Assembly: GCA_965116695.1 (NCBI GenBank)
Contig: OZ220706.1
Coordinates: 706,415 to 770,414 of the forward strand
Length of the DNA stretch: 64,000 nt
Origin: Acidobacteriota bacterium
Lineage (GTDB): Bacteria > Acidobacteriota > UBA6911 > RPQK01 > JAJDTT01
Reading direction: 5' to 3'
The stretch's first letter is position 1. Every line of letters begins with the position of its first letter. Below are positions 7,718 through 56,205 of the stretch, in pieces. The notes under the pieces are model-generated. The model ran no database searches and was not told where the DNA came from. It saw nothing but the letters and a program-made list of their open reading frames with translations. A program made the position numbers and the translations under genes.

Positions 7718-7746
7718 TTGCTCTTCGTTTTCTAGTTTCACCGGAG

Positions 7747-8006
7747 TCCGGCGCCTGGAAAGGGCGCCGCTCCTGTCCGGCGCCTGGAAAGGACGCCGCT
7801 CCTGTCCGGCGCCTGGAAAGGACGCCGCTCCTATCCGGCGCCTGGAAAGGACGCCGCTCCTGTCCGGCGCCTGGAAAGGACGCCGCTCCTATCCGGCGCC
7901 TGGAAAGGACGCCGCTCCTGTCCGGCGCCTGGAAAGGACGCCGCTCCTATCCGGCGCCTGGAAAGGACGCCGCTCCTGTCCGGCGCCTGGAAAGGGCGCC
8001 GCTCCC
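7747..8006 (-). repeat. Tandem array of about 9 copies of a 29-bp unit TCCGGCGCCTGGAAAGGACGCCGCTCCTR, with a 58-bp higher-order period (alternating G/A)
   Basis: Read directly. Unit length is not a multiple of 3 and the array is intergenic. On the minus strand each unit reads GGAGC-GGCGUC-cuuucca-GGCGCC, a hairpin with a UUUCC loop like the dispersed element family. No spacers, so not CRISPR. Confidence 0.85.
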
Positions 8007-18641: not shown

Positions 18642-19331
18642 TCAGGAATGTTTCTTCGGCGCCAGGCTGAACGGTTCGCGCGCGAACACCCGGCGCACCA
18701 TCGGCTCGAAGAACTTCAGCGGCAGCGAATCGTATTCGGGATCGAACGCGCACTGGTCCCAGCGGTGACAGAAGTCCACGGCGTCCCGATACCAGGGATG
18801 GTCGCGGTACTTGTCGCGCGCGTTGCGGTTTCCGCCCACGTGGTGGGCGTAGTAGTAGAGCTGGAACAGGCCGTGGTGCCGGACGATCCAGTACGTTCGC
18901 TCGGTCACGTAGGGGCGCAGCAGCAGCGCGGACAGCTCGCCGTGGCTGTGCGGGGCCAGCATGTCGTCGATGTCGTGCAGGAGCGCCGCCACCACCAGCT
19001 CCTCTTCCGCGTCGTCGCGATAGGCGCGGGTCGCGGTCTGAAGAGAATGTTCCAGCCGGTCGACCTGGTAGCCGGCGAGCGAACCGGACAACTGGCGAAG
19101 ATACGCCAACACCCGGTCGGCGGTGCCGGCGGCGAACTCGTTCTCATGGCGACCGAGCAGCGCGTAGTCCTCGCGGGTGCCGTCCGCCATACTGGTGAAG
19201 CTCACGGTAGGACCGCTCGACGTTGCCGTATTGTGCATGCTTGTCCACCTCCCGATCAGGGTTCCTTGCGATGCAGCGTGCTTGAAGGCTCGGGGCTTTG
19301 TCAAGGACGCCAGCCCCAGGACATCCCCCAT
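18642..19331 (-). CDS. HD-domain metal-dependent phosphohydrolase/oxygenase-like protein
   Basis: H...HD motif (ALLHDIDDM) and downstream His residues; the start may be at the internal Met (about 19220). Confidence 0.55.
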   Translation of the reverse strand: MGDVLGLASLTKPRAFKHAASQGTLIGRWTSMHNTATSSGPTVSFTSMADGTREDYALLGRHENEFAAGTADRVLAYLRQLSGSLAGYQVDRLEHSLQTATRAYRDDAEEELVVAALLHDIDDMLAPHSHGELSALLLRPYVTERTYWIVRHHGLFQLYYYAHHVGGNRNARDKYRDHPWYRDAVDFCHRWDQCAFDPEYDSLPLKFFEPMVRRVFAREPFSLAPKKHS

Positions 19332-19502
19332 TTTCCTGGTGGTTCAGGAGAACCAGGGAAGTAGGGGCACCCCTTGTGGGTGCCCTCTTCGTTTCAAGCC
19401 GGTTCATGTCGTCAGGAAGAGGGCGACCACAAGGGTCGCCCCTACGATACGGACGGGAATTGTCCAGAGAATGCGGAATCCTTCGAGCAATGACGACCGA
19501 CC
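19322..19502. repeat. 180-bp dispersed repeat, copy A; contains an 85-bp imperfect palindrome (30-bp arms GTAGGGGCACCCCTTGTGGGTGCCCTCTTC / GAAGAGGGCGACCACAAGGGTCGCCCCTAC)
   Basis: Near-identical to 56206-56388 and, for its left 65 bp, to 26901-26968; lies between divergent genes. Confidence 0.8.
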
Positions 19503-19659
19503 CCAGCGCCGGCCCGGGCCCGGTGCTTGACACACGGAGGTAAAGCGCACCTAATGCTCGGAAAAGTTCACGTGCGCTGAGGGCTCAACGCACGGATGCC
19601 CGGAGCCGCGGCGCCAGCGCATGCTCCGGGCCGGTCACAATGGATTGAGGGAATCGACC

Positions 19660-20961
19660 ATGCATCAACCGATCAGCGTGGACCAGTCCGACAGGATCGT
19701 CCCGATCAACCTTCGCCAGAGCGGCCGCACGCCGACCGAGCTACTCATTTCCACCCGGGTCCGGAAGTCTCCCTATTGGCATTTGTCGCATGAAGCGGGC
19801 TGCTGGCGGGCCACCGTCTACAATCGCATCTACCACCCCCGCGGCTACGTGCGGCCCGGGGACGGCGGCGCGGCTGCGGAGCACGAAGCGCTGACCCGGC
19901 ACGTCACGCTCTGGAACGTCGCGGTGGAGCGGCAGATCCGGGTCAAGGGACCGGATGCGGAACGGTTCGCCGATTACGTGATCACCCGGGACGCGACGCG
20001 CATCGAGCCGATGCATGCGAAGTACGTCATCCTCTGCAACGAGAAGGGTGGCATCCTCAACGACCCGGTGCTGCTGCGGCTCTCCCGGGACGAGTTCTGG
20101 TTCTCGCTTGCCGACTCCGACCTCCTGTACTGGCTCCAGGGCGTGAACGTCGGGCTTCGGATGGAGGTGGAGGTCGACGAGATCGACGTCTGTCCCCTGC
20201 AGATCCAGGGGCCGAAGTCGCTCGACCTCATGACCGACCTGGTGGGCGCGGGCATCCGGGACATCCCCTACTACGGAATCATGGAGGCGCAGATCGCAGG
20301 CTGTTCCGTGGTGGTCTCCCAGTCCGGGTTCTCGGGCGAGAAGGGGTACGAGATCTATCTTCGGGACGCCACCCTGCACGCCGAGAAGCTGTGGCGCGCG
20401 GTGCTTGACGCGGGGGAAAGGCACCAGTTGATGGTCATCGCGCCGGGCCACCAGCGCAGGATCCAGGCCGGGATCATGTCGTGGGGACAGGACATCGACC
20501 ACGAGACGAGTCCGTTCCAATGCAACCTGGCCTACCAGGTGCCGCGCAAGAAGCCGGGAGACTACATCGGGCGGGCCGTGCTGGAGCGCCAGCGCGCCGA
20601 GCTCGACGCCGGGCGTTGTCCGTTCGCCATGGTCATGGCGGGGATGACGCTGGGGGGGAACCCCATTGACGACTATGCCCCCGACTTCTGGCTCGTGTCG
20701 GACGCGGACGGCGGCGACCCGATCGGCTACCTCACGTCGCCCTGGCACTCCCCCGAGCTCGGCTGCAACATAGCGCTCGGGTACGTGCCCCCCGGGAAGT
20801 CGTCCGTCGGCACGGAGCCCACGGTGTGGTTGCCCGACGAATACGCAAGCGAGGCGGGCCGGCCGGACCGCGCACGGGTGTGCGAGGTTCCCTTCCGCCC
20901 CTCCGTGAACCCCAGCGCCCGCGAGATCGCGCTTGCCCGGGGCCTGGACGCGACGGTCTAG
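19660..20961 (+). CDS. Aminomethyltransferase (GcvT/DmdA)-family folate-binding protein
   Basis: GcvT-like pattern: IRVKGPDAERF ... LCNEKGGILND ... QGPKS ... SQSGFSGEKGYEIY. Confidence 0.7.
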   Translation: MHQPISVDQSDRIVPINLRQSGRTPTELLISTRVRKSPYWHLSHEAGCWRATVYNRIYHPRGYVRPGDGGAAAEHEALTRHVTLWNVAVERQIRVKGPDAERFADYVITRDATRIEPMHAKYVILCNEKGGILNDPVLLRLSRDEFWFSLADSDLLYWLQGVNVGLRMEVEVDEIDVCPLQIQGPKSLDLMTDLVGAGIRDIPYYGIMEAQIAGCSVVVSQSGFSGEKGYEIYLRDATLHAEKLWRAVLDAGERHQLMVIAPGHQRRIQAGIMSWGQDIDHETSPFQCNLAYQVPRKKPGDYIGRAVLERQRAELDAGRCPFAMVMAGMTLGGNPIDDYAPDFWLVSDADGGDPIGYLTSPWHSPELGCNIALGYVPPGKSSVGTEPTVWLPDEYASEAGRPDRARVCEVPFRPSVNPSAREIALARGLDATV

Positions 20962-27131: not shown

Positions 27132-29642
27132 ATGATGACGAACACCCGTTGGCTCGTGGCCACGATCCTGGTCTGCCTGTCTCTTGGACAGGATGTCCGA
27201 TCCCAGGACTCGACCACACCTGTGGATCTGACCCCCTATCTCGTCCAACCGAAAGCCCAGGAGTCGGGTCCGTCCGGATTCCGGTTGACTTTCGTCGACC
27301 AGGCCAGCCACCGGCTCCAATTCCAGTACGGGACTGATGAGGCCGTCGAACTGCAAGTGTCGGTCGGGTACCCGGCGGGAGGAGCCCGAACCCTGCGCCG
27401 GCTCCTGGACCCAATCCCGGAAGACTCTCAGCAAAGTTTCGATCTGGGTCCCCTGCTGGCCCACGGCCCCTACAGCCCGATTCCCGCCTACACCCGCAAG
27501 GGACCCCAGGCCAGAAGCTGGCGTCCCTTGCGCACCGGCTGGTGGGTCGATACCCAGGACGCGGGCAAGTATCTCGTCACCGTCATGGCAAGACGCGTGA
27601 AGGACGGCCAGACCCTGTTTACCACCGACCTGCGCCTCCCGGTCCAGAACTGGGTGGGAGCGGATCTGGACCGACTGGCCTACATCGACGACAACGCCGC
27701 CGAGATCGAGCTCTGGCTGGAGAAGGGCGCACCGGTCTCGGAACTGCCGGTGGAAGTGGATATCGTGCAAGCCCGGACCGGCGTCCGGCGATCCTCCTCC
27801 AGTCCGATCCGCCTCACCCGGGACAGGGTCCGGGTGGGGTTCGACCTCACCGACCTGGAGCCGGCGACCTATCACGTCCGGATCCGGCCCCGGATCGACG
27901 GCCGCCTCTGGGACGACGGCATCCGCCGGGCCCTCTACGTGTTCCGGAACGGGCCGCCGCCCAAACCGGAGCCGCCCATCGAGATCCCGGTGGCTCCCCA
28001 GTTGTTCCTGGACGACTTCCTGATCGACGAACAGCGGAATCTCGAGCGGGTCTTCCATCCGGCCGGCAAGCTGGACGCCCAACCGATCGTCCGCGCGGAC
28101 CGTCCCTGGGAGGGGCACGCGGTCATGGTGCCCGTTGGCTCGAGATACGAATTCAACGCGAAGGAGAATCGCTACGAACTCGAATACATCAGCCTGACGC
28201 CCCGCCACCGGTTGCTGGCCGTCTCCAGCGACGGCGTCCGTTGGACCAAGCCGGATCTGGGCCTGGTGGAGTTCGAGGGATCCCGGGCCAACAACATCCT
28301 GGAGGTCATTCCCCGCGGAAGTCACTTGGACGCGGGCGGCCAATTCGGGGGACTGTGGGACTACCGGACTCGCGGAGTGCCCGATCTTCGGACCGCCAGC
28401 ATGGTCTACACCCCCAAGACCGAGGACATGTTCTTCCTCCGGGGGACGTACCTGATGGTCCGGGACTCGGATGGGACCCGGTATCTCACCACGGAACGGC
28501 CCTTCATGCGGCATCACTCGCAGTTGGAGTCGTTGGACAATCCCAACGACAACCTGGGGCCCATGTTCTACGACGAGCGAACCGGTGAGCTGGTGTTGTA
28601 CTTCGCACCGCATCCTCCGGCCAAGGGGCGGGGTCTGGTTCGCTACGACAACAAGTGGGCGGTCTCGCGGAACCTGGGACGCATGACCACGCGAGACGGC
28701 GTGAACTGGCACCGCAGCTACATCTGGGCGCCGCCCCGGAAGCATCCCAAGCACCAAAGTTACGGAATGCAGCGGGTGAAGCAGATCGGCGACCTCTACG
28801 TGGCGTTCTTTCCCCTCTACGACTGCGAGACGCAGCAGATGGACGTCCATATCTGGGTAAGCCGGAACGGGATCCACTGGGAGGACGTGGGCGGCGATCA
28901 GGCCTGGATCCCCACCGGACCCGACGGCAGCTTCGATCATGGGATCGTCTACAGCCTTATCGACGGGCCGGTGGATGGGGACCGGTCCGAGGCCTTTTAC
29001 CATGGCACGAATACCCTTCACTTCAATGCCTGGATCCTGAACCGGTTGCGGGGAGGGTTGGATGATCCTCCGGTGCCGGCCTCCGAGATCTTCGACGAGC
29101 AGACCTACAACGGACGGCCCTACCTGTCCCCGCCGGCGCCGGTGGGGCCTGGATGGGCCATGTACGACTGCATCTGGAGCTGGCGGCGTCCGCAGTGCAA
29201 CCCGACTATGGAGGAGGTGCGGGAGGCATTCTGGGCCGAGTTGGAGAAGCACACCGGGCAGAACCGGAGCAACCACGTCGAGAAGAGCTGGGAGTACGAG
29301 ATCGTACCGTTCCGCGTGGAGTTTCGGACCAATGGGTTTGCATCGAGGCGGGCTGAAGATCAAACAGGCGTGTTGACGACCCACGCCTTGATATTTCAGG
29401 GAAACCGCCTGACGGTGAACGCCGCGGCCGGCAAGGGCCGAGTGACGGTGGAGGTCCTTGACGAAGAGGGCCGCCCCCTGCCCGGCTATGCCCGCGAGGA
29501 TTGTCTTCTTGAGTCCTTCGACAGCACCCGGCAAGAGGTCAGGTGGCGCGAAAAGTCGAGTCTTGCAGCGCTTAGGGACCAGCCGGTTCGTCTTCGATTT
29601 TACGTCCAGAAGGCTGATCTGTACGGATTTCAGATCCGATAG
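27132..29642 (+). CDS. Secreted LFVDDxLI-family glycoside-hydrolase-like protein, paralogue 2, with a 330-aa N-terminal extension
   Basis: 836 aa; signal peptide; PQLFLDDFLIDE, RPWEGH; C-terminal PVRLRFYVQKADLYGFQIR. Its 3' 1.5 kb is the source of the truncated duplicate at 35175-36038. Confidence 0.5.
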   Translation: MMTNTRWLVATILVCLSLGQDVRSQDSTTPVDLTPYLVQPKAQESGPSGFRLTFVDQASHRLQFQYGTDEAVELQVSVGYPAGGARTLRRLLDPIPEDSQQSFDLGPLLAHGPYSPIPAYTRKGPQARSWRPLRTGWWVDTQDAGKYLVTVMARRVKDGQTLFTTDLRLPVQNWVGADLDRLAYIDDNAAEIELWLEKGAPVSELPVEVDIVQARTGVRRSSSSPIRLTRDRVRVGFDLTDLEPATYHVRIRPRIDGRLWDDGIRRALYVFRNGPPPKPEPPIEIPVAPQLFLDDFLIDEQRNLERVFHPAGKLDAQPIVRADRPWEGHAVMVPVGSRYEFNAKENRYELEYISLTPRHRLLAVSSDGVRWTKPDLGLVEFEGSRANNILEVIPRGSHLDAGGQFGGLWDYRTRGVPDLRTASMVYTPKTEDMFFLRGTYLMVRDSDGTRYLTTERPFMRHHSQLESLDNPNDNLGPMFYDERTGELVLYFAPHPPAKGRGLVRYDNKWAVSRNLGRMTTRDGVNWHRSYIWAPPRKHPKHQSYGMQRVKQIGDLYVAFFPLYDCETQQMDVHIWVSRNGIHWEDVGGDQAWIPTGPDGSFDHGIVYSLIDGPVDGDRSEAFYHGTNTLHFNAWILNRLRGGLDDPPVPASEIFDEQTYNGRPYLSPPAPVGPGWAMYDCIWSWRRPQCNPTMEEVREAFWAELEKHTGQNRSNHVEKSWEYEIVPFRVEFRTNGFASRRAEDQTGVLTTHALIFQGNRLTVNAAAGKGRVTVEVLDEEGRPLPGYAREDCLLESFDSTRQEVRWREKSSLAALRDQPVRLRFYVQKADLYGFQIR

Positions 29643-29838
29643 GCAATTCGTTCGATCACCCAACCTCTGAATAGGAAGGCGATTTCCAGTCGTCCATTCC
29701 TGCGTTCGTTCGCGAATTCATTCCACCCTGCGCTCCTGCGACGACGTTCCCTATGTTCGGCGATCAAAAACCGCCGAACCTTGTCGGCCATTCATCACAG
29801 CCGGCAGTCATGGTTCTGCAGGAAAAGTGCCGGAGTAC

Positions 29839-29862
29839 AAATGAAAATGGATTTCATTTTCA
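29839..29862. promoter_or_regulatory. Fur-box-like palindrome AAATGAAAATGGATTTCATTTTCA
   Basis: 14/19 match to GATAATGATAATCATTATC; lies in a 300-bp AT-rich island upstream of the porin-imelysin operon. Confidence 0.45.
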
Positions 29863-29902
29863 CTTGCACTCCGCCGAGATAGCCCCTACCATAGCGCACG
29901 TT

Positions 29903-29926
29903 AATGAAATTGCATTTCATTTTCAT
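29903..29926. promoter_or_regulatory. Second Fur-box-like palindrome AATGAAATTGCATTTCATTTTCAT
   Basis: Same hexamer-repeat architecture, 64 bp downstream of the first. Confidence 0.45.
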
Positions 29927-30061
29927 CGAGTAACGGAGCCGAAGAGTCTCTTGCCATGGGATCCCGTCTGAGACTCGGGGGGTCAATGGGAGGCATGCGG
30001 AGAGCACTGCCGTAAGGGGTCTTCTCCGCTTCGGGCGGCTTATCCAAAAAAAGGTAGGCGG

Positions 30062-31576
30062 ATGGACGGGAAGAAGACGTTAGCAAGGAGCGGTGTATTG
30101 GGAACGACGAGCGTTCTGCTGCTCGTTGCGACACTTCAGGCTGCCGGACCGCCGGCGGAGAATCGAGACACTCCGGTCTCAAAAGGAGGGACGGACAGCC
30201 GTCAGATCTCCGATCCTGAGGAATTGCTTCAGATCATCGAAGCGCAACAAGAGCAGATCCACGCACTGCAGCGGGCGTTGGACGAACTCCGGGAGCAGGT
30301 GCAGGGCATGGTCGAGCGCCGGAGCCCGGAGACGCCTGCTCCCCGCCGGCCCGGCAGTGAGTTGGCCGAGAGAAAGCCCGGTCCCACCTTCAAGGAGAAC
30401 GTCCGGGGGGACGCCGGTTCCAAATGGGAATTTTCAGGCTACGGGACGATCTTTTACGAAAACTACGACTGGGAAACTCATGCCGACCGTCGGGCGAGAA
30501 CCGACGTCGAGAGAATCCTGATTGAGGCCGAGTACCAGCCCATCGACAAGTTCAAGGTGGAGGTGGAGGTCGCTTTGGAGCATGGGGGCGTCGGCGCCGC
30601 TACGGAGTTCGACGTATTCGAGGAGTTCGGAGAGTTCGAACAGGAAATCGAAAAAGGCGGTGAGATCGAACTCGAGAAGGCACATGCCGAGATCCTGTTT
30701 TCCCGTGCTCTGAGCGTGAAATTCGGGCACGTGATCCTCCCTGTGGGGTTGTTGAACCAACGCCACCTACCATCCCAATACTTCACCGCCGCTCGCGATG
30801 CGACGGCCAGCCCGCTCATTCCCGTCACCTGGCACGAAAACGGTGTCGGTGTTTTCGGCGAGCTGGGGCTCTTCGGCGGCACCTATCTCGAGTATGAGGC
30901 TCAGTTCGTCAATGGCTTGGATTCGACGGGATTCAGTTCGGCGAACTGGATCCGGGGCGGTTTTCAAGAGAGGTTCGAGTACAAGGTGGCCGAGAACCCG
31001 GCCTATGTCTTCAACCTGAACGTCCACCCGACCGCGAGTGCCATGTTCGGCGTCTCCTTCTATCGCGGCAACACGGCCGACAATCGTCCCAAGGATGACG
31101 TGGACTACGACGCGCACGTCAACATCGGCTCCGTGTTCGGAACCTGGGAAGCCGGCGCGATCACTCTACGGGGGGAATATATCCGTGGAACCCTGGAAAA
31201 CTCCGACCTCTTGACGCGGTCCAACCGGCGACTGTCCAACAACCTGGGAGTCGTCCGCTCGCCCGTAGCCCGGGCCGCCGAGTCGGTCTACGTCGAGTTC
31301 GGCTACGACATATCCGAGTGGATCAAGCGCGGTCTCGGCGTCAATCCCGGCCCGCTCGACCTGTTCGTTCGCTATGACCAAGTCGACAGCATGGCCGAAG
31401 TGGAGCCGCTTGTCTTCAAGAACCCCAGATGGGACCGGGAAAGCTGGACGCTCGGCTTCAACTACCGGTTCGCTTCCGGATTCGTAGGGAAGTTCGGACA
31501 TAGCTGGAGGACCTTGGGCACCGCAACGCAAAACCGCGAAAACACTCTCTCAGCGGGAGTTGCGTACGAGTACTGA
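30062..31576 (+). CDS. Outer-membrane beta-barrel porin with an N-terminal coiled-coil segment
   Basis: Signal peptide; heptad-like EELLQIIEAQQEQIHALQRALDELREQVQGM; alternating beta-strand pattern; ends GVAYEY. Confidence 0.55.
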   Translation: MDGKKTLARSGVLGTTSVLLLVATLQAAGPPAENRDTPVSKGGTDSRQISDPEELLQIIEAQQEQIHALQRALDELREQVQGMVERRSPETPAPRRPGSELAERKPGPTFKENVRGDAGSKWEFSGYGTIFYENYDWETHADRRARTDVERILIEAEYQPIDKFKVEVEVALEHGGVGAATEFDVFEEFGEFEQEIEKGGEIELEKAHAEILFSRALSVKFGHVILPVGLLNQRHLPSQYFTAARDATASPLIPVTWHENGVGVFGELGLFGGTYLEYEAQFVNGLDSTGFSSANWIRGGFQERFEYKVAENPAYVFNLNVHPTASAMFGVSFYRGNTADNRPKDDVDYDAHVNIGSVFGTWEAGAITLRGEYIRGTLENSDLLTRSNRRLSNNLGVVRSPVARAAESVYVEFGYDISEWIKRGLGVNPGPLDLFVRYDQVDSMAEVEPLVFKNPRWDRESWTLGFNYRFASGFVGKFGHSWRTLGTATQNRENTLSAGVAYEY

Positions 31577-31604
31577 TCGTTCCAATCGAAAGGAGAAAAG
31601 AGAA

Positions 31605-32930
31605 ATGAGGCGTTCAATTTTAATGGTGGCAGGCTTAGCCATGCTTTGCAGTTCGTGGTCCCAGGGTCAGATCCGGCCGCCGGTCTATTCGGTGATCACC
31701 GAGGGCACGAAGGTGACGCTCTACTGGGACGATGTCGAGGGGGCGGACGGATACCGCGTCTACTACGCTCCGTATCCGGATGCAAACCCCATCGGTTTCG
31801 TGGACTTCGGTCCGGATGTCACCACGGTGGCTACCGACCAGCAAGAGGGCGCGCACTACTATTCCGCCGTCACGGCGAAAAAAGGCGAGGAGGAAAGCGC
31901 CTGGTCGAACATCGAGATCTTCCACGCGACGTCGCTGGATCCTGCCGATGCAAACGCCACCGAAGCTGAAATCATCTCGAATGTCGCCCAAACGGTCATC
32001 GCGGCAGACTATGCCGAACTGGAGAGACGCGCCGCAGTTCTGCTCAATACGGTCTACGCCGTCAGCTTCGACACCTCCGACGACAACCTCCTGGAGGCTC
32101 AACAGGCCTGGCGTAACGCCCGGCGGGCCTGGGAGCAGACCGAAGCGTTCCTGTTCGGCCCCGTGGACACTGCGGGCCTCGATCCGGCCATCGACAGTTG
32201 GCCGGTCAACCGGGTCGATCTGGATGCGGTGTTGAACAGCGACAACGTTCTCACCGAGGACTTCGTGGCCAACTTGGACGATACGCTGAAGGGCTTTCAC
32301 ACCATCGAGTACCTGCTGTTTGGTGTCGGCAGCGCCAAGCCTGCGTCGGAGCTGACCGCGAGGCAGAAAGAATACTTGGTGGCGGCTTGCCTCAACCTGG
32401 CGTCGGCCACGAAGACTCTGGCGGATGGCTGGCGGTCTGGAGAAGGAAGTTATCTCGCCGAGTTCGTCAATGCCGGAACCACCAGCACCATCTACACCAG
32501 CACGACTTCGGCTCTTCAGGAATTGGTTGAAGGGATGGGTATCATTGCCGATGAGGTCGGCAACGGAAAGATTGCGGACCCCTTCGACGAGAGGAACACG
32601 GAACTGGTGGAGTCCCAGTTCAGCTACAACTCGATCATGGACTTTGCCGACAATATTCGGGGCATTGAAAACGTCTACATTGGCCGCTACCTGCACAATG
32701 ACGGTCCTGGACTCGACGATCTGGTGAAGCGGACCAACGCTGAATTGGATCAGAAGATGCGCACTGCGATAACGACGGCCATCAGCGAGATTGAGAAGAT
32801 CCCGTACCCCTTCAGGGACGCAATATCGACAGACGAGGGGCGCGCTCAAATTGATACTGCCCAGGAAGCGGTGATCGATGTGCAGTTGCTGATCGAAGGA
32901 GAGCTGCTCAGCCACGTGCTGGGTCGGTAG
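31605..32930 (+). CDS. Imelysin-like (peptidase M75/IrpA/EfeO-like) periplasmic protein with an N-terminal Fn3-like domain
   Basis: GxHxxE imelysin signature (LKGFHTIEYLLFG); N-terminal VTLYWDDVEGADGYRVYYAP Fn3-like strand; SD sequence AGGAG before the ATG. Confidence 0.7.
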   Translation: MRRSILMVAGLAMLCSSWSQGQIRPPVYSVITEGTKVTLYWDDVEGADGYRVYYAPYPDANPIGFVDFGPDVTTVATDQQEGAHYYSAVTAKKGEEESAWSNIEIFHATSLDPADANATEAEIISNVAQTVIAADYAELERRAAVLLNTVYAVSFDTSDDNLLEAQQAWRNARRAWEQTEAFLFGPVDTAGLDPAIDSWPVNRVDLDAVLNSDNVLTEDFVANLDDTLKGFHTIEYLLFGVGSAKPASELTARQKEYLVAACLNLASATKTLADGWRSGEGSYLAEFVNAGTTSTIYTSTTSALQELVEGMGIIADEVGNGKIADPFDERNTELVESQFSYNSIMDFADNIRGIENVYIGRYLHNDGPGLDDLVKRTNAELDQKMRTAITTAISEIEKIPYPFRDAISTDEGRAQIDTAQEAVIDVQLLIEGELLSHVLGR

Positions 32931-32965
32931 GTCCGCCGGGGACAGGCGCGTTTCGATGACCGACG

Positions 32966-34579
32966 ATGAGATTCAAGTTCTGCATCGCGACAGTCTCAAT
33001 TGGCATCATGGTGAGCGTCGCCGTCGCGCTCACCGGGGACGACGCGCCTGCCCTCACGGTTTCTCAAGACGGGTCTACCATCACGGCCGAATGGACGGCC
33101 GTGAGCTGGGCCGAAGGTTATATCCTCGTCTACGCTCCATTCCCGGAGTTTCAGCCTGTCCACGGTCTCGACCTGGCTTTGCGCCGCAGCCATTCGTTGC
33201 AGTTGGGAGATCTGGACAGCTACGTGATGGCCGTTTTCCCGTATCGGGAGTATGTGCGGCTCAACGCGGTCTCGAATATCGTCGTGGCCGAATTGGATCC
33301 TGCCCTTTCGGGCGGTGAAACGACCGCCTTCACTCCCACCAGCAACGCTTTCTCTACGCCGGCTCCGAACTTGTCCGATGAGGGCGGGGTACGTCACCGC
33401 GAGGGTGACAAGGATTTCGGGGCGGTTTTCGTGACGGCCCCGGCGCCGGTCAATTCCGGGTTGGGTCCCGTCTTCAATCACAACTCCTGCGAGTCCTGTC
33501 ACCCGAAGGACGGGCGAGACGCCGCGCCGGAACACGGCGAGGAAATGGACACCATGTTTCTCCGTCTGAGCCTGCCCGGGTCCGATCCTCATACGGGCGA
33601 GGCAATCCCGGTTCCGGGATTCGGAACGCAACTGTTCACCAAGGCCATTTTCGGGACGGAGCCGGAAGCGACGGTGACCGTCACATACGAGGAGGAGACG
33701 GTCACGTTGGCGGGCAGCGGCGTGGAAGTGAGCTTGCGGACACCCTCCCATACCGTTGAATCATCCACCGATTTGCCGGCGGATACGTTGTTTTCGCCGC
33801 GGGTCGGACCACCCGTATTTGGCCGGGGCCTGCTCGAGGCGATACCGGCGCATACAATCCTGGCGATGGCCGACGAAGAGGATGCGGACGGCGACGGGAT
33901 TTCAGGGCGCGCCAATTTTGTCTGGGATCCGGAGCAGCAGCAGACCGTGCTCGGACGTTTCGGGTTGAAGGCGAACAACCCGAATCTGCGATTGCAAGCC
34001 GCTGCGGCATACCATAACGATATCGGCATCACGTCCCCGGTATTCGTCCAGGAGAGCTCCACGGGCCAAGTCCAGGACGACCTCCTGGACGACGATCCCG
34101 AAATCGACGAGGAAACTCTTCAGGACGCGACCTTCTACGTCCAGACGTTGGGCGTTCCGGCGAGGCGCGACGTCGATTCCCCTGAAGTCCAACTTGGACA
34201 GTACGTCTTTGCTCTGGCCAACTGCCACAGTTGCCACGTGCCGGTGCTGAAGACCGGGGACTTCCCGGTCGCCGAGCTGGCCCACCAGGTGATCCGCCCA
34301 TACACGGACATGTTGTTGCATGACATGGGACCGGGACTGGCCGATCTCCGGCCGGATTTCCTGGCCACCGGCAGCGAATGGAGAACCCCTCCCTTGTGGG
34401 GCATCGGCCTGACCAAGGTCGTGAACGGTCACACTTCGTTTCTGCACGACGGCCGCGCCAGGAACCTGCTCGAAGCAATCATGTGGCACGGGGGAGAAGC
34501 GGAAGAATCGCGCCTGTTCGTAGAGGATCTGTCCAAGCGCGAACTGGATGCCCTGCTGGCGTTTCTCAACTCGCTTTAG
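32966..34579 (+). CDS. Di-haem cytochrome c peroxidase-like protein (DUF1111, so-called thiol oxidoreductase, the usual imelysin partner)
   Basis: Two CxxCH motifs (NSCESCH, ANCHSCH); CCP/MauG-like C-terminus LDALLAFLNSL; N-terminal Fn3-like TITAEWTAVSWAEGYILVYAP. Confidence 0.65.
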   Translation: MRFKFCIATVSIGIMVSVAVALTGDDAPALTVSQDGSTITAEWTAVSWAEGYILVYAPFPEFQPVHGLDLALRRSHSLQLGDLDSYVMAVFPYREYVRLNAVSNIVVAELDPALSGGETTAFTPTSNAFSTPAPNLSDEGGVRHREGDKDFGAVFVTAPAPVNSGLGPVFNHNSCESCHPKDGRDAAPEHGEEMDTMFLRLSLPGSDPHTGEAIPVPGFGTQLFTKAIFGTEPEATVTVTYEEETVTLAGSGVEVSLRTPSHTVESSTDLPADTLFSPRVGPPVFGRGLLEAIPAHTILAMADEEDADGDGISGRANFVWDPEQQQTVLGRFGLKANNPNLRLQAAAAYHNDIGITSPVFVQESSTGQVQDDLLDDDPEIDEETLQDATFYVQTLGVPARRDVDSPEVQLGQYVFALANCHSCHVPVLKTGDFPVAELAHQVIRPYTDMLLHDMGPGLADLRPDFLATGSEWRTPPLWGIGLTKVVNGHTSFLHDGRARNLLEAIMWHGGEAEESRLFVEDLSKRELDALLAFLNSL

Positions 34580-35174: not shown

Positions 35175-36038
35175 CATCCGCAACCGATCGTCCGCGAAGA
35201 CCGGCCCTGGGAAAGGCACGCGTTCATGGTGCCCGTTGGCTCGAGATACGAATTCAACGAGAAGGAGAACCGCTACGAACTGGAATACATCAGCCTGACG
35301 CCCCGCCACCGGTTGCTGGCCGTCTCCAGCGACGGCGTCCGTTGGACAAAGCCGGATCTGGGCCCGGTGGAGGAGGGCCGGTCCGAGGCGTTCTACCACG
35401 GGACGGATACCCTTCACTTCAACGCCTGGATCCTGAACCGGTTGCAGGGAGGGTTGGATGATCCTCCGGTGCCGGCCTCCGAGATCTTCGACGAGAAGAC
35501 TTATAACGGACGGCCCTATCTGTCCCCACCCGCACCGGTGGGACCGGGATGGGCCATGTACGACTGCATTTGGAGCTGGCGGCGGCCGCAGTGCAATCCG
35601 ACCATGGAGGAGGTGCGGGAGGCCTTCTGGGCCGAGTTGGAGGAGTACACTGGACAGAACCGGAGCAACCACGTCGAGAAGAGCTGGGAGTACGAGATCG
35701 TGCCGTTCCGCGTGGAGTTTCGCACCAACGGGTTCGCGTCGAGGCGTGCTGGGGAGCAGGAGGGTGTGCTGACGACCCACCCGCTGATCTTCCAGGGGAG
35801 CCGAATAACGGTGAGCGCCGCGGCTGGTGGGGGTCAAGTACCGGTAGAAGTCCTGAACGAAGGGGGCCGTCCCCTGTCCGGCTACAGTCGGGATAAGTGT
35901 CAGTTGCCAGCCTTCGACAGCACCGAGCAGGAGGTAACCTGGACCGGGAAATCAGATCTGGCTGAGTTACGAGGCCAGCCGGTTCGCCTCCGATTCCACC
36001 TTCAGAAGGCCGATCTCTATGGATTTCAGATCCCATGA
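35175..36038 (+). pseudogene. Truncated, internally deleted duplicate of the 3' half of the gene at 27132..29642
   Basis: Nucleotide homology 35175-35370 to 28073-28267 and 35375-36038 to about 28980-29642, about 90% identity. About 720 bp are missing at a GGTGGA microhomology. No N-terminal half or signal peptide. Confidence 0.8.
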
Positions 36039-37157: not shown

Positions 37158-39728
37158 GTGAGTTCCTGCCGACAACACGTCTCAGACCTGATCTTCCGGA
37201 TTCTCACAGCTACACTTGGAATCCTGTTGCTCATCGGTAGTGCTCTCCTCGGAGCCCCTCCCACAACCGAACAGACCGAGTTCTTCGAGTCGAAAATCAG
37301 GCCGCTACTGGCACGAAACTGCTACCAGTGCCACAGCGAACAGGCAAAGATCCTGTACTCGAACTTGCGAGTAGATGACCGAGCCGCCTTGCTCAATGGC
37401 GGGACTCGTGGACCGGCAATCGTCCCCGGCGACCCGAACTCTAGCCAAATCATTCAAGCAGTCCGCTTCGAGAACCTGGAAATGCCTCCGGATGGAAGGT
37501 TGTCGGAGGACCAGATCGACGCGTTGGTCAAATGGGTGGAGATGGGTGCACCCTGGCCGGATCTGGCGGTCGCCGGCGGTGCCACGACCTCCAACGGGCA
37601 GACGAACCCGGCCGCAGGTCAGAGCCACTGGGCCTGGAAGCCGGTGCAAAAGGTCTCTGCGCCCCCGGTCCGGGACAAAGCCTGGCCAACCGATCCCGCA
37701 GACAACTTTATTCTGAGGAAGCTTGAGGCCGAGGGTCTGGCTCCCTCCCCCGAGGCTGCCCGTTACGCGCTTTTGCGTCGGGTTTACTTTGATCTGATCG
37801 GTCTTCCTCCGGAACCCGAAGTCATCGAGTCCTTCGTCACCGATAATTCCGAACTCGCCTTTGAGAAGGTCGTGGACCAACTCCTGAGATCTCCCGGATT
37901 TGGCGAACGCTGGGGACGGCACTGGCTCGATCTGACCAGCTACGCCGACAGTCTCGGCCAGGGACGCCGCATCCCCGCCAGGGAGGCCTGGCGATATCGC
38001 GACTACGTCATCAACGCGTTCAATTCCGACAAGCCCTACGACCGCTTCGTTCAGGAGCAGATTTCAGGCGACGTGCTCCCTTGGAAGACCGACGACCAGC
38101 GCCGAGAGCAGCTCGTGGCCACCGGCTTCCTGGCCATCGGACCCTGGGCGGTCGTGGATTCCGACAAAGAGAAACTCCGCATGGACGTCGTGGACCACCA
38201 GCTCGACACGCTGGGCCGGGCCCTTCAGGGATTGACCCTCGGTTGCGCCCGCTGCCACGACCACAAGTTCGATCCCATCCCCACCCGCGAATACTACGCA
38301 TTGGCGGGAATCTTCCGCAGCACTCGAACACTCAACGGCCGCATGAGCGGCGGCTTCAGCGACGTCAACCGGGTGTTGCTGCCGGAGACCCCATCCGAGA
38401 TGAGGAAACGCGCCCTGGCCACGGAGGAATACCAACAGGCCCTGGACAGGTTCCTGAGCGAATATGAAGCCGTCGAATCCGAAAAGAAGCGCCTGACCGA
38501 CCGGCAGAAAACGCTCGAAGAGGCAGCAACCGAAGCCAAGGCGGCACTCGAGAAGGAACTCAAGGAAATCAACAAGAAGCTCAAGGAAGCAAAGGACCGG
38601 ATCAGACTGCTGGAGTTCCGGCGGCCGGGTCCGCCGATGGCCATCGCCGTCCAGGATCGGGCGGTCCCCAAGGACAGTCGCGTCAACATCGGCGGGGATC
38701 CGCACAATCTCGGCGAAGAAGTTCCGCGAGGGTTTCTTTCAGTCGCTTCACCTGCCAAGGCGGGCCGCATCGACAGTCATCGAAATCTGAAAGGCTTGTA
38801 TGAGGGATTCCAAAAATCGAGCGGCCGCCTGGAACTGGCCGAATGGCTCATCGACCCGCAGAACCGGCTGCTGGCCAGAGTCATGGTCAACCGGATCTGG
38901 CATCATCTCTTCGGCGCCGGCCTGGTCCGGACGGTCGACAATTTCGGCGCCGGCGGCGAGCCGCCCAGCCATCCGGAACTGCTCGACTACCTCGCCACCC
39001 GCTTCGTCGAGCTGGGATGGTCCGTCAAGGGCATGATCCGCGAAATCGTTCTCACTCGGACCTACCGCCAGGCCAGCCGTTACAATTTGAAAGGCCACGA
39101 GGTCGACCCGGACAACCGCCTGCTCTGGCGGGCCAATCGCCGGCGTCTGGAGGCGGAAGCCTATCGCGACTCCGTGCTGGCCATCAGCGGAGCCCTGGAC
39201 CGCACCCGGGGAGGCCCTACCCTGCCCCTGGACATCCCTGAGAGTATCGCGTTGGGTTTTCCCACGGCGCTGACGCAGGACGCCAAGGTGAACGACGAGT
39301 TTCTGAATCGTCGAACCATTTACCTGCCGTCGGTGCGCAAGAATCAGCTCCCGCAGCTCGACCTGCTGAATCTCTTCGATTTCCCCGATCCCGATCAGAC
39401 CATCGGAGCCCGGTCGGTCACCACGGTCCCCACACAGAGCCTCTTTCTCATGAATTCTTTGTTCCTCCGGGAGCAGGCTCTGCTGACGGCCCGCACCCTC
39501 TTGGAGTCCGGAGGTCCGGACGACAAAACGCGGGTCTCCGGTTTTTTCCTGCGAGCCTTGAACCGGCCCGCCACAGAGCAGGAAGTGGACCAGGCGCTGG
39601 ATTTCATCGCGAAATTCCAAGAGAAGCTGGGCCGCCTGCCGGAGGCTTCCGGCAATTCGCGCCTCAAAGCCTGGGCGCGTTACTGTCACTCCATATTCGC
39701 GTCAAACGAATTCCTTTTTCGAGGATAG
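37158..39728 (+). CDS. PSCyt1/PSCyt2/PSD1 (DUF1549/DUF1553) secreted protein, module 1
   Basis: Signal peptide, then CYQCHS (Planctomycete cytochrome C domain); second CxxCH (CARCHDHKFDPI); coiled-coil linker; followed by a DUF1501 gene. Confidence 0.8.
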   Translation: MSSCRQHVSDLIFRILTATLGILLLIGSALLGAPPTTEQTEFFESKIRPLLARNCYQCHSEQAKILYSNLRVDDRAALLNGGTRGPAIVPGDPNSSQIIQAVRFENLEMPPDGRLSEDQIDALVKWVEMGAPWPDLAVAGGATTSNGQTNPAAGQSHWAWKPVQKVSAPPVRDKAWPTDPADNFILRKLEAEGLAPSPEAARYALLRRVYFDLIGLPPEPEVIESFVTDNSELAFEKVVDQLLRSPGFGERWGRHWLDLTSYADSLGQGRRIPAREAWRYRDYVINAFNSDKPYDRFVQEQISGDVLPWKTDDQRREQLVATGFLAIGPWAVVDSDKEKLRMDVVDHQLDTLGRALQGLTLGCARCHDHKFDPIPTREYYALAGIFRSTRTLNGRMSGGFSDVNRVLLPETPSEMRKRALATEEYQQALDRFLSEYEAVESEKKRLTDRQKTLEEAATEAKAALEKELKEINKKLKEAKDRIRLLEFRRPGPPMAIAVQDRAVPKDSRVNIGGDPHNLGEEVPRGFLSVASPAKAGRIDSHRNLKGLYEGFQKSSGRLELAEWLIDPQNRLLARVMVNRIWHHLFGAGLVRTVDNFGAGGEPPSHPELLDYLATRFVELGWSVKGMIREIVLTRTYRQASRYNLKGHEVDPDNRLLWRANRRRLEAEAYRDSVLAISGALDRTRGGPTLPLDIPESIALGFPTALTQDAKVNDEFLNRRTIYLPSVRKNQLPQLDLLNLFDFPDPDQTIGARSVTTVPTQSLFLMNSLFLREQALLTARTLLESGGPDDKTRVSGFFLRALNRPATEQEVDQALDFIAKFQEKLGRLPEASGNSRLKAWARYCHSIFASNEFLFRG

Positions 39729-41161
39729 TGATCATGAACCTCCCGCTTCACCGAAATTTGACGCGCCGCCGTTTCCTGCGATCCTCCGCCTGCGGATTCG
39801 GGTCAGTGGCGCTGGCCGCCATGTGCTCCGAGCAGGCTGCGGCCGCGGCCGGCCCCCTGGCGCCGAAGGTTCCGCATCTTCCGCCCCGAGCCAAGCGCGT
39901 GATCTTCATGTGGATGGCGGGCGGCCCTTCCCAGCTCGACATGTTCGACTACAAGCCGCGGCTGGCGAAAGAGAGTGGAGAAGCCATCCCCTACGCGATT
40001 CCTGACGGGGTCGGAATGGATTTGAGCCGCCTCATGGGGCCGATCTCCCCGATGCGGCCCCGGGGACAGTCCGGGATGATGCTAACCGACTGGCTGCCCC
40101 ACATGGCGAAGCACGCCGATGAGTTGTGCCTGCTCCGGGCCATGCAGGCGGACAACGAAGCTCATGCCCCCGCGGCACGGCAACTGCACACCGGCGATCC
40201 CCGCCTGATTCGTCCGTCCATGGGATCGTGGGTCGGGTACGGGCTGGGAACCGAGAACCGGAACCTGCCCAGCTTCATCACCATCTGTCCGCTCCTCGTA
40301 GGCGACACCGGGAACGTCCAGTTTTTCGGGAATGCGTTCCTCCCCGCCATCTACCAGGGAACGGCGCTGGGAAACCGGGCCACCGGCGCCGGGAAGGCGG
40401 TGTTTCGCTATATCGAGGATCCGAGCCTGCCTGTCGAGCTGCAGCGCGATCAGGTGGATTTCATTCAGCAGATGAACCGGGCGCACCTGCAACAGGTTCG
40501 AGCCGACCGCCAGATGGAGGGACTCATCCAGTCCTTCGAGCTGGCGTTTCGAATGCAGTCGGAGGCTCCGGATCTCATCGACCTGTCGTCCGAGTCCAAG
40601 GCCACGCTCGATCTCTACGGTATCGGCCAGAAAGAGACCGACGAATTCGGACGCCAGTGCTTGCTGGCGCGCCGCTTCGCCGAAGCCGGTGTGCGCTTCA
40701 TTCAGATCACCTCGAGCGGCTGGGACCATCACGAAGCCATCGGCAAGGGTCTTCCCAGGAAGTGCGCCAACATCGACAAGCCCACGGCCGGCCTGATCAC
40801 CGACCTCAAGGCCAGGGGACTGTTCGACGACACCCTTCTGGTCTGGTCAGGTGAGTTCGGGCGAACCCCCCACTTCGAGGACTTCTCCTTCGGAGACAAA
40901 TCCCAATACGGCCGGGGACACAACCCCGAAGGGTTCTGCGCCTGGATGGCCGGCGGCGGCGTGCGCGGGGGCATGGTCCACGGCGTCACCGACGAGTACG
41001 GTCTCCGGGCCGTCGACCAGAAGGTGCACATCCACGACCTGCACGCCACGATCCTCCACCTTTTGGGCCTCGACCACGAAAGGTTGACCTACCGCTACAG
41101 CGGTCGAGACTTCCGCCTCACGGACGTCTACGGGCGGGTGGTGAAAGAGATCCTCGCGTGA
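39728..41161 (+). CDS. DUF1501 family protein (sulfatase-like, Tat signal), module 1
   Basis: RRRFLRSSA Tat motif; MWMAGGPSQLDMFDYKP and GEFGRTP hallmarks; start overlaps the upstream stop. Confidence 0.8.
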   Translation: MIMNLPLHRNLTRRRFLRSSACGFGSVALAAMCSEQAAAAAGPLAPKVPHLPPRAKRVIFMWMAGGPSQLDMFDYKPRLAKESGEAIPYAIPDGVGMDLSRLMGPISPMRPRGQSGMMLTDWLPHMAKHADELCLLRAMQADNEAHAPAARQLHTGDPRLIRPSMGSWVGYGLGTENRNLPSFITICPLLVGDTGNVQFFGNAFLPAIYQGTALGNRATGAGKAVFRYIEDPSLPVELQRDQVDFIQQMNRAHLQQVRADRQMEGLIQSFELAFRMQSEAPDLIDLSSESKATLDLYGIGQKETDEFGRQCLLARRFAEAGVRFIQITSSGWDHHEAIGKGLPRKCANIDKPTAGLITDLKARGLFDDTLLVWSGEFGRTPHFEDFSFGDKSQYGRGHNPEGFCAWMAGGGVRGGMVHGVTDEYGLRAVDQKVHIHDLHATILHLLGLDHERLTYRYSGRDFRLTDVYGRVVKEILA

Positions 41162-56114: not shown

Positions 56115-56205
56115 TGGAGCTTCAAGTCGAGCCTGCTTTCGTTGTGAAGGTCGCCATTATAGCCGAAATCCAATGCCCTCAGATACGAGGTGGTGCTTAC
56201 AGGAA

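Follow-up and report, generated by a model that had tools for sequence, protein, structure and literature searches.

Within the 64,000 nt stretch of DNA analysed here, referred to throughout as the window, lies an operon that encodes an outer-membrane barrel, an imelysin and a di-haem protein. The first gene (positions 30062-31576, + strand) encodes an outer-membrane barrel or porin-like protein of 504 aa, which carries a coiled coil at its N-terminal end; the sole direct Pfam match of this protein is a weak one to SlyX, itself a coiled coil, and PF07396 or PF13505 is found in a few of its homologues. Placement of the gene 1 product in the phosphate-porin family was rejected, as PF07396 was not reached even at E <=10. 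The second gene (31560-32930, + strand) encodes an imelysin (Peptidase_M75; PF09375, E = 4e-66), and because P0123, a database protein of 100% identity, has a length of 441 aa, the true start of this gene is probably at 31605, which would give a product of 441 aa. The third gene (32966-34579, + strand) encodes a di-haem oxidoreductase or putative peroxidase (DHOR, equivalent to DUF1111; PF06537, E = 2e-107). A partial copy of the gene upstream of the operon recurs 3' of the operon in the window, which also carries PSCyt1, PSCyt2, PSD1 and DUF1501 genes, from which its host would seem to be planctomycete-like. When tblastn was run with approximate E. coli Fur, B. subtilis PerR and Zur queries, no Fur-family gene was found in the window or in loci L001-L010, which were used for comparison.

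Palindromic boxes and a putative promoter upstream of the barrel gene

Two related palindromes precede the barrel gene. Box 1 (AATGAAAATGGATTTCATTTTCA) occupies positions 29840-29862, with a 21 bp core at 29842-29862, and box 2 (AATGAAATTGCATTTCATTTTCA) occupies positions 29903-29925, with a 21 bp core at 29905-29925. A preliminary description of this DNA had reported two such palindromes, quoted as AAATGAAAATGGATTTCATTTTCA at 29839-29862 and AATGAAATTGCATTTCATTTTCAT at 29903-29926, and both were found where it had placed them. It had also put them some 140-220 bp upstream of the porin start, in good agreement with the measured distances of 200-222 bp (box 1) and 137-159 bp (box 2) before the ATG at 30062. 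The sequence TGAAAATG-N5-CATTTTCA is present in both boxes, each of which is a 21 bp palindrome, and the 7-8 bp inverted repeats described earlier correspond to a perfect 8-5-8 arrangement in box 1 and to one with 7/8 matches in box 2, for which ATGAAAT-TGC-ATTTCAT is an alternative reading. Each box also contains two matches, 6 bp apart, to the 7-1-7 pattern TGAAAATNATTTTCA and comprises two overlapping units of the type TGAAAAT-n-ATTTTCA. When the window was searched for repeats, the two boxes emerged as a 23 nt direct repeat with 91% identity, 63 bp from start to start. The GC content is 22% in the boxes, 47% across positions 29780-29940, 53% in the 419 bp intergenic region and 62% in the window as a whole; positions 29780-29940 are thus of lower GC content, as had been claimed, although to call this stretch sharply AT-rich is too strong.

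With up to three mismatches allowed, the boxes are the sole sites for the pattern TGAAAATGNNNNNCATTTTCA in the 64 kb window, whereas shuffled sequence contained a mean of 0.09 sites and none of 100 shuffles contained two or more. The chance expectation for the 23-mer pattern in the window is 0.00, and box 1 reaches 38.3 bits with a matrix to whose construction it had itself contributed. Three weak matches to the 7-1-7 pattern (5330, 11661 and 15270) were dismissed as lying within coding sequence, and another at 16330 as lying between convergent genes; boxes of the TGCGAAT type showed no enrichment within the 64 kb window.

Alignment of orthologous promoters places a putative -35 hexamer, TTGCAC, at positions 29864-29869 (+ strand) and, after a 17 nt spacer, a putative -10 hexamer, TACCAT, at 29887-29892 (+ strand). 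A consensus sigma-70 scan did not call a promoter at TTGCAC-17-TACCAT, and we therefore infer the promoter from the cross-species alignment. In this alignment the -35 column reads TTGCAC, TTGAAC or TTGACC in the window, L009, L008, L007, L001 and L002, the -10 column reads TACCAT, TACTAT, TACGAT or TAATAT in the orthologues, and the spacer is always 17 nt. Box 1 ends 1 nt 5' of the -35 hexamer and box 2 begins 10 nt 3' of the -10 hexamer, spanning the presumed transcription start and the early transcribed region.

The stretch of 5' leader that separates box 2 from the start codon (29926-30061, + strand) is conserved in the orthologue alignment. A 19-codon upstream ORF beginning at about 29954, spotted by eye in the alignment, was rejected as a frameshift breaks it in L003 and a change of its ATG to ACG abolishes it in L008. 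A structured leader RNA or riboswitch was rejected also: folding of the leader gave z = -1.16, none of its 27 predicted pairs showed a compensatory change, and nothing meaningful was found in Rfam, either for the region at E <=1 or for the whole window at gathering thresholds.

When interpreting repeats of this kind, it is important to consider whether they are repressor sites at all, as AT-rich repeats might also be read as an UP element, as sites for a nucleoid-associated or unrelated factor, or as an RNA element in which box 2 forms a 5'-terminal hairpin. Box 1 lies at roughly -57 to -37, which is the UP-element zone, the minimum-energy fold predicted for the transcript has a small hairpin at box 2, and the failure to find a Fur-family gene in the window or in L001-L010 is also in keeping with such explanations. 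However, box 2 shares the sequence of box 1 yet sits downstream of the promoter, so that an UP element cannot explain both, and the leader carries no structural signal by any of the three measures given above. Furthermore, the exact 21-mer adjoins Fur-family genes at 40 listed loci from several phyla (see below), as is characteristic of Fur-type operators that are autoregulated. We consider it improbable that the boxes are something other than repressor sites.

Conservation of the boxes and distribution of the 21-mer

In orthologues whose barrel is 84-90% identical to that of the window, the intergenic sequence flanking the boxes diverges while the boxes themselves and their spacing persist. 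The complete layout (box 1, -35 hexamer, 17 nt, -10 hexamer, about 10 nt, box 2) is kept in L007, L008 and L009, with box 1 at the equivalent place and a box spacing of 62-63 bp; L007 possesses an extra, third box with the canonical GATAATGAT. No element of the region is better conserved than box 2, which is found in L001, L002, L003, L007, L008 and L009. L001 carries the segment from promoter through leader to gene 5' end in duplicate. In L005, a 63% identical relative, a box of sequence TGAGAATGATTTTCAATTTCA abuts TTGACA-17-CATAAT before a TonB-dependent-receptor-like gene, which is followed by PepSY_TM, and the imelysin operon of L005 has no box in front of it. Barrel homologues encoded on metagenome contigs of 67-71% GC (L149 and L155) have an identical box just 5'. 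Among orthologous operons elsewhere, that of Nitrosomonas has TTGCGAATCATTCGCA together with a site three mismatches from the E. coli Fur 19-mer, that of candidate Poribacteria has TTGACA-17-TATAAT followed by TGCGAATGAGTCTCAATATCA, that of L010 has boxes of the TGCGAAT type and that of L163 has GCAAATGATTATCA; the boxes of these four operons are lineage-typical and Fur-like. Genes for FTR1, ferritin or PepSY_TM adjoin several of the orthologous operons elsewhere.

The history of the locus could also suggest that the pair of boxes is a functionless feature of chance or historical origin, generated by local duplication, left behind by a mobile element or derived from a terminator hairpin of the upstream gene. 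Rearrangement has occurred, as seen in the duplication of promoter, leader and gene 5' end in L001 and in the partial copy of the upstream gene that follows the operon in the window, and box 1 sits within an inverted repeat with 19 nt arms. Yet the number of sites expected by chance is at most 0.09, no T-run follows the hairpin, the same gene associations of the motif recur across phyla, and the boxes with their 62-63 bp spacing have outlasted the sequence around them. This explanation is largely refuted by the conservation data, and we regard it as highly improbable.

The distribution of the 21-mer was established by scanning 185,579 species genomes for the pattern TGRAAWTGNNTTTCATTTTCA, which gave at least 120 loci, mostly from GC-rich Acidobacteriota. 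The scan patterns were anchored on the right half-site of the window's own boxes, and the results therefore describe associations of this exact sequence and not a full regulon. Among the matches listed, a Fur-family gene adjoins the 21-mer in 40/120 loci, from several phyla, and all 40 of these neighbours were confirmed by phmmer. When six representatives were compared with NCBIfam models, Fur was the best match in 6/6, above PerR and Zur (117.7 bits versus 71.7 and 38.8, respectively, for the first representative). Other neighbours among the matches listed include FTR1/FtrD (13 loci), TonB-dependent receptors (11 loci) and FeoB. In Acidobacteriota the box is found 5' of fur, a divergent penicillin-amidase gene, FTR1/FtrD, TonB-dependent receptors and small outer-membrane proteins, and many of the scan sites are placed 8-10 nt past a -10 hexamer, as is box 2. 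Neither an imelysin nor a DHOR gene was found near the motif in the scan loci, in which the operon is represented only by the barrel homologues of L149 and L155. The sole match from Pirellulales among those listed (L040), located inside an ORF in a locus of 48% GC, was dismissed as chance.

Candidate regulator and the metal sensed

The boxes are, we think, likely operators of a metal-dependent repressor from the Fur family (most likely Fur itself, the iron sensor), through which the sigma-70-type promoter that drives barrel, imelysin and DHOR would be controlled. The preliminary description had predicted tandem Fur operators on an iron-regulated operon, and this prediction agrees with the comparative evidence, namely the motif type, the linkage to Fur-family genes, the position at the promoter and the nature of the operon. 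The predicted repression of the operon by a Fur-family protein is well supported by these sequence comparisons, and its presumed membership of a Fur regulon rests on relatives and other phyla. The fact that the boxes flank the core promoter without overlapping it was counted against their being Fur operators. Iron specificity is probable rather than shown, because the core of the motif also serves Zur in Actinobacteria and Clostridia.

The boxes might instead serve another Fur-family paralogue, such as Zur (zinc), PerR (peroxide) or Mur (manganese), in which case the operon would answer that signal and not iron. The footprinted Zur consensus of Streptomyces is TGAAAATGATTTTCA (PMC2823685), and with this core shared the motif alone does not specify the metal. 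Zinc genes do adjoin the motif among the matches listed (ZnuA at four loci and ZIP at three), and ZnuA-like genes adjoin it in L145 and L153. A response to peroxide would be in keeping with the induction of the Leptospira imelysin operon by H2O2 in addition to iron limitation (PMC7567364) and with the annotation of DHOR as a putative peroxidase, and in three simple queries acidobacterial Fur-family proteins were slightly closer to B. subtilis PerR than to E. coli Fur. However, position 10 of the 21-mer separates the zinc loci from the operon studied here. All seven zinc-gene loci among the matches listed, which are from Clostridia and Actinobacteria, have T at this position, a class that also takes in delta-proteobacterial Fur sites, whereas A is found in both boxes of the window and in every orthologous box. 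The A-type class comprises 70 of the loci among the matches listed; each of the 13 FTR1 loci belongs to it and none with ZnuA or ZIP does, a split that is confounded with phylogeny as every FTR1 locus is acidobacterial. Neither T at position 10 nor association with zinc genes, as expected of an actinobacterial Zur box, is seen in the window boxes. Indeed, a zinc-uptake gene accompanies the operon in no lineage examined, whereas FTR1, ferritin, PepSY_TM and TonB-dependent receptors do. The NCBIfam ranking of Fur above PerR and Zur in all six representatives and the documented presence of imelysin operons in the Fur regulon (PMC3143127) also argue for Fur. We judge control by Zur, PerR or Mur to be unlikely, though the likeliest of the alternatives considered.

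In characterised systems, overlapping 7-1-7 pairs at a 6 bp shift are occupied by two Fur dimers that sit on opposite DNA faces. If the window boxes are Fur operators of this kind, the 63 bp between their centres, equivalent to six helical turns, would leave the proteins bound at the two boxes facing the same side of the helix. Under iron sufficiency both boxes would be filled by metal-loaded Fur, so that RNA polymerase is excluded or trapped; under iron scarcity this repression would be lifted. The operon would then supply an outer-membrane channel and, in the periplasm, an imelysin/di-haem peroxidase pair for iron uptake of the EfeO/EfeB-like type. The components of this scheme that we infer are the transcription start, protein binding, cooperativity or looping, and the metal that is sensed.

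A more far-reaching proposal, which we offer tentatively and ourselves consider rather unlikely, is that the GAAAAT-type 21 bp double box represents an ancient cross-phylum operator class, present in Acidobacteriota, Desulfobacterota, Myxococcota and the window lineage, that one conserved target of this class is a so far unrecognised family of coiled-coil-barrel channels feeding an EfeU-less imelysin/di-haem peroxidase module, and that the window boxes, six helical turns apart across the promoter, may repress by cooperative looping and not by simple occlusion. Should Fur prove to be the regulator, the boxes would offer a working model of Fur-type operators in an uncultivated, planctomycete-like marine lineage, the barrel-imelysin-DHOR operon would be marked as an iron-starvation module, and the coiled-coil barrel would be suggested as the outer-membrane entry point of the iron system. 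A full-text literature search on iron and Fur boxes in Planctomycetes gave a single paper, on Chlamydiota. The 21-mer is also a ready motif for annotating Fur regulons in Acidobacteriota. The analysis extends known regulatory logic to new taxa and does not overturn current understanding.

Relationship to known Fur and Zur boxes and to imelysin operons

The classical Fur box of E. coli and B. subtilis (GATAATGATAATCATTATC; as a 21-mer, TGATAATGATAATCATTATCA) shares with the window boxes its length of 21 bp and its composition of two overlapping 7-1-7 units. The window boxes match the 21-mer at 16/21 and 15/21 positions, and the E. coli 19-mer at 14/19 (box 1) and 13/19 (box 2), close to the figure of about 14/19 estimated in the preliminary description. 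This comparison alone is weak, as the boxes are the best and joint second-best sites for the 19-mer in the window but three unrelated sites reach 12-13, and with up to three mismatches from GATAATGATAATCATTATC no site was found in the window. Where the classical box has GATAAT the window boxes have GAAAAT, with A replacing T at position 3 of each unit, and the E. coli consensus is not the best comparator.

The published delta-proteobacterial Fur motif, the dFUR-box WTGAAAATNATTTTCAW, also occurs in a form described as 'two overlapping boxes shifted by 6 bp' (PMC545781; Rodionov et al., 2004), and predicted targets of this motif were strongly upregulated in a fur mutant of Desulfovibrio alaskensis (PMC4045070; Kuehl et al., 2014). 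The half-sites TGAAAAT and ATTTTCA are common to dFUR and the window boxes, which score 15/17 and 14/17 against WTGAAAATNATTTTCAW, with a further unit 6 bp downstream in either case, so that two 17-mers overlap at a 6 bp shift in the dFUR double box and in the window boxes alike. The published D. desulfuricans pqqL site (ATGAAAATAAATTTCATTTTCAT) is nearly the same as the window 23-mer, tandem boxes lie 5' of predicted porins both among delta-proteobacterial Fur sites and in the window, and the dFUR motif, as the 21-mer does in the genomes scanned, lies upstream of fur and iron-transport genes. There are also differences: the host of the window is neither Desulfovibrio nor Geobacter, the barrel-imelysin-DHOR operon is absent from the published delta-proteobacterial regulon, and the window has two double boxes, 63 bp apart, that flank the promoter.

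The experimentally footprinted Zur box of Streptomyces coelicolor, the 7-1-7 sequence TGAAAATGATTTTCA (cited in PMC2823685), has heptamer half-sites identical to those of the window boxes, which match it at 13/15 and 12/15 positions. In the window boxes, however, A and not T at position 10 shifts the centre of symmetry and creates a palindrome of 21 bp and not 15 bp, and the target genes are of the iron type.

Imelysin operons that are regulated by Fur or iron include PA4370-PA4373 of P. aeruginosa and VC1264-VC1266 of V. cholerae (PMC3143127; Xu et al., 2011), a Fur- or iron-regulated operon of Riemerella (PMC5609570) and one of Leptospira, which is induced by iron limitation and H2O2 (PMC7567364). 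As appears to be the case in the window, a Fur-type operator serves an imelysin and its DUF1111/DHOR di-haem partner in the P. aeruginosa and V. cholerae operons, and both these modules and that of the window are presumed to acquire iron outside the cytoplasm without EfeU. The window operon differs from them in that the protein encoded first is an outer-membrane barrel whose N-terminal part is a coiled coil, in having a single imelysin and no DUF1513 protein, and in the sequence class of its operator.

Two palindromic boxes and their surroundings

The 419 bp intergenic region in front of the imelysin operon holds two 23-nt direct repeat copies, box 1 (AATGAAAATGGATTTCATTTTCA, 29840-29862) and box 2 (AATGAAATTGCATTTCATTTTCA, 29903-29925), which by repeat search share 91% identity and are spaced 63 bp apart. 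The palindrome TGAAAATG-N5-CATTTTCA is present in both, and at up to three mismatches these are its only two sites in the 64-kb window (shuffled sequence gave 0.09 on average, and two or more in none of 100 shuffles); for the 23-mer pattern the chance expectation is zero. The two strings quoted in a preliminary description of this DNA were found where it had placed them, but the 'sharply AT-rich' island that it reported was overstated: GC content is 47% across 29780-29940, 62% for the window and 22% within the 23-mers.

The gene upstream of the boxes, which encodes an 873-aa protein without a Pfam match, ends at 29642. Downstream, three genes form one operon (30062-34579): gene 1 (30062-31576) encodes the putative 504-aa porin-like barrel, with a weak coiled-coil match only in Pfam, and some of its homologues match the barrel families PF07396 or PF13505; gene 2 (31560-32930) encodes the imelysin (PF09375, E = 4e-66) and gene 3 (32966-34579) the DHOR/DUF1111 di-haem protein (PF06537, E = 2e-107). 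Further on, at 37158-41161, lie PSCyt1/PSCyt2/PSD1 and DUF1501 genes, which may point towards a planctomycete-like host. No Rfam family was matched by the box region or by the whole window, and neither the window nor the related loci yielded a Fur-family gene.

The 3' part of the 873-aa gene (28080-28271 and 28965-29637) is repeated at 35181-35372 and 35360-36033 with 83-94% identity, the downstream copy being a truncated 270-aa ORF (35226-36038) just past the operon. Promoter and operon are thus bracketed by direct repeats, which suggests an insertion or rearrangement at the locus. Downstream of the 873-aa gene and ahead of box 1 lies a hairpin, TTCGGCG-N9-CGCCGAA (29758-29782), comparable to hairpins seen in related loci L008 and L009; a GC hairpin followed by a T-run (29773-29788) overlaps it and was classed as terminator-like for the minus strand, which shows no evident gene there. 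The hairpin at 29758-29782 may terminate the upstream gene or an unannotated transcript of the minus strand. Elsewhere in the window, self-comparison revealed a tandem array of 29-bp period (7746-8005; about nine copies, 96-98% identity) in or beside large overlapping ORFs, and a 194-bp repeat of 91% identity has copies 37 kb apart at 19317-19510, just upstream of a 446-aa ORF (19621-20961), and at 56200-56393.

Promoter layout in related loci

Loci retrieved by homology to the barrel comprise close relatives (84-94% identity) and farther ones (63% and 56%). L007, L008 and L009 have the same layout as the window, i.e. box 1, -35, a 17-nt spacer, -10, about 10 nt and box 2, with -35 hexamers TTGCAC, TTGAAC or TTGACC, -10 hexamers TACCAT, TACTAT or TACGAT, and a box-to-box distance of 62-63 bp. 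This layout places the window promoter at 29864-29869 (-35) and 29887-29892 (-10), so that box 1 would end one base before the -35 and box 2 start 10 bases after the -10; a consensus promoter scan left the promoter uncalled, and its placement therefore derives from conservation alone. A further box in L007, AATGATAATGATCTTCAGTTTCA, brings its total to three and includes the canonical GATAATGAT; in L001 and L002 box 1 is gone, and the promoter TTGCAC-17-TAATAT is retained with box 2; and L003 has one perfect 12-1-12 palindrome, AATGAAAATGAATTTCATTTTCATT. That the boxes arose by chance or are a relic of rearrangement is contradicted both by this conservation and by the window statistics, and is highly improbable.

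Among the farther relatives, L005 (63% identical barrel) has an imelysin operon without a box, and a 29.9-bit site, TGAGAATGATTTTCAATTTCA, abutting TTGACA-17-CATAAT upstream of a TonB-dependent-receptor-like gene and then PepSY_TM; this site is overlapped by an opposite-strand gene call, which makes its intergenic status uncertain. In L010 (56%), TGCGAAT-type boxes precede the operon and PepSY_TM genes flank it.

The 5' leader (29926-30061, about 135 nt) is conserved across relatives; L003 and L007 have 100-200 nt inserted close to its 3' end. It gave no sign of structure and matched no Rfam family, and an upstream ORF of 19 codons within it was rejected as not conserved among relatives. In L001 (87% identical), about 400 bp comprising promoter, box 2, leader and the first 40 or so barrel codons are duplicated (6363-6760 and 9740-10130) around an inserted gene for an 846-aa LRR protein, giving two copies of box 2 (6472 and 9846); L002 encodes the same protein and is without the LRR-gene insertion.

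Genes associated with the boxes in other genomes

A search of 185,579 species genomes for TGRAAWTGNNTTTCATTTTCA gave at least 120 matches; since all scans, this one included, took the right half-site of the window's boxes as their anchor, they describe associations of an exact sequence, not a complete regulon. Among the matches listed, GC-rich Acidobacteriota dominate, in whose genomes chance matches are very unlikely, and the only Pirellulales match (L040) was dismissed as lying inside an ORF. When genes flanking each listed site were extracted and clustered, the largest cluster (at least 40 loci) had a Fur-family protein in 40 of 40 by phmmer; Fur was the best NCBIfam match of six representatives, all below equivalog cut-offs. 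Further clusters were penicillin amidase, divergent from an acidobacterial fur gene (at least 22 loci), FTR1/FtrD iron permease (at least 13), TonB-dependent receptor (at least 11), ZnuA (at least 4), ZIP (at least 3) and small outer-membrane proteins, and FeoB occurred at one locus or more. Many listed sites lie 0-10 nt after a TTGAC(A/C)-17-TATNNT promoter, which is where box 2 lies in the window. An UP element, an unrelated factor or an RNA hairpin would account neither for the presence of identical boxes before and after the promoter nor for this association with Fur-family genes, and such an explanation is improbable.

Many Acidobacteriota have one perfect TGAAAATGAATTTCATTTTCA box between a Fur-family gene and a divergent gene for a PvdQ-like acylase of the penicillin amidase family (PF01804; loci include L012, L015, L017, L018, L041, L046, L051, L065, L072, L089 and L109-L111), and in this phylum the box is also found in front of genes for FTR1/FtrD, TonB-dependent receptors and two families of small outer-membrane proteins; taken together, all these genes look like an undescribed Fur regulon. 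In Oscillospiraceae and other Clostridia (L019, L036, L061, L086, L107, L126), TTGACA-17-TATAAT is followed directly by a box with T at position 10 and then a Fur-family gene, with a His-rich ZnuA gene after it in L019 and L107, which looks like an autoregulated zur-znuA unit with the same core sequence.

The window's form, with A at position 10 and a 21-bp palindrome, occurred at 70 or more loci and the T form, which contains a 15-bp Zur-type palindrome, at 40 or more; among the matches listed, FTR1 numbered 13 with A and none with T, and ZnuA plus ZIP none with A and seven with T. This split would favour iron rather than zinc for the window's form, but phylogeny is a confounder, and delta-proteobacterial fur genes are also found with the T form. 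Control by another Fur paralogue, e.g. Zur or PerR, would fit a core common to Zur boxes and the peroxide response of Leptospira; the position-10 split and a context consistently made up of iron genes count against it, and it is unlikely.

In metagenomes, ATGAAAWTGSATTTCATTTTCA had 25 matches, including TonB-dependent receptors, ZnuA-like proteins and two barrel homologues (L149, 33% identity, and L155), both with an N-terminal coiled coil and a box immediately upstream. The operon recurs in Methylococcaceae (L156) as barrel-imelysin-DHOR-FTR1-ferritin; in candidate Poribacteria (L160), with ferritin and PepSY_TM nearby and TTGACA-17-TATAAT followed by TGCGAATGAGTCTCAATATCA; in Nitrosomonas (L158), with TTGCGAATCATTCGCA and TATAATAATAATAATTATC, the latter three mismatches from the E. 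coli Fur 19-mer; and in L163 as barrel-DUF1513-imelysin-DHOR, with ...AATAATGATCATGTTGCAAATGATTATCA in front. AT-richness in several of these upstream regions makes their box matches count for less. Just upstream of the L156 cluster, with a transposase gene in between, are Rrf2 (IscR-like), cysteine desulfurase and IscA-like genes (1-1763), placing iron-sulfur assembly and iron uptake genes side by side.

Proposed regulation and known Fur-family operators

Our working model is that a Fur-family repressor, most likely Fe2+-carrying Fur, would bind each 21-bp double box as two dimers, RNA polymerase being blocked by box 1 beside the -35 and box 2 over the predicted start site. The conserved 63-bp spacing corresponds to six helical turns, which could set the complexes on one helix face and allow cooperative binding. 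When iron is limiting, the repressor would come off and the operon would be induced, yielding an outer-membrane channel and a periplasmic imelysin/di-haem peroxidase pair of EfeO/EfeB type. Judged from sequence, Fur-family control of the boxes is very probable, and control by iron and Fur specifically is probable. Imelysin operons are reported to be under Fur or iron control in P. aeruginosa and V. cholerae (PMC3143127), Riemerella (PMC5609570) and Leptospira, where H2O2 induces too (PMC7567364), and the comparative evidence supports the earlier proposal of tandem Fur operators for the imelysin operon. The boxes are predicted operators of a known kind, useful for annotation and no surprise to a specialist.

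Against the E. coli Fur 19-mer, for which the preliminary description gave about 14/19, we measured 14/19 and 13/19. In the window these scores rank first and joint second, but as 13 is also attained by unrelated sequences, this comparison is weak by itself; at up to three mismatches the E. coli consensus has no match in the window. The 7-1-7 pattern TGAAAATNATTTTCA matches twice in each box with a 6 bp shift. The Streptomyces Zur box defined by footprinting, TGAAAATGATTTTCA, has the same heptamers (PMC2823685), so the core marks a Fur-family operator and does not by itself specify the metal. The 17-bp consensus WTGAAAATNATTTTCAW, which the boxes match at 15/17 and 14/17, is the delta-proteobacterial Fur box that Rodionov et al. 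derived from feoAB and fur upstream regions (PMC545781); they also predicted porins under Fur with two tandem boxes in front (PMC545781), and most predicted targets of this motif were strongly upregulated in a D. alaskensis fur mutant (PMC4045070). Sites from Rodionov et al. such as ATGAAAATaAaTTTCAT and ATaAAttTCATTTTCAT, when merged, resemble the window's 23-mer almost completely (PMC545781), and the dFUR-type double box, two delta-proteobacterial units overlapping with a 6 bp shift, is by its sequence a better comparator for the window boxes than the E. coli consensus.
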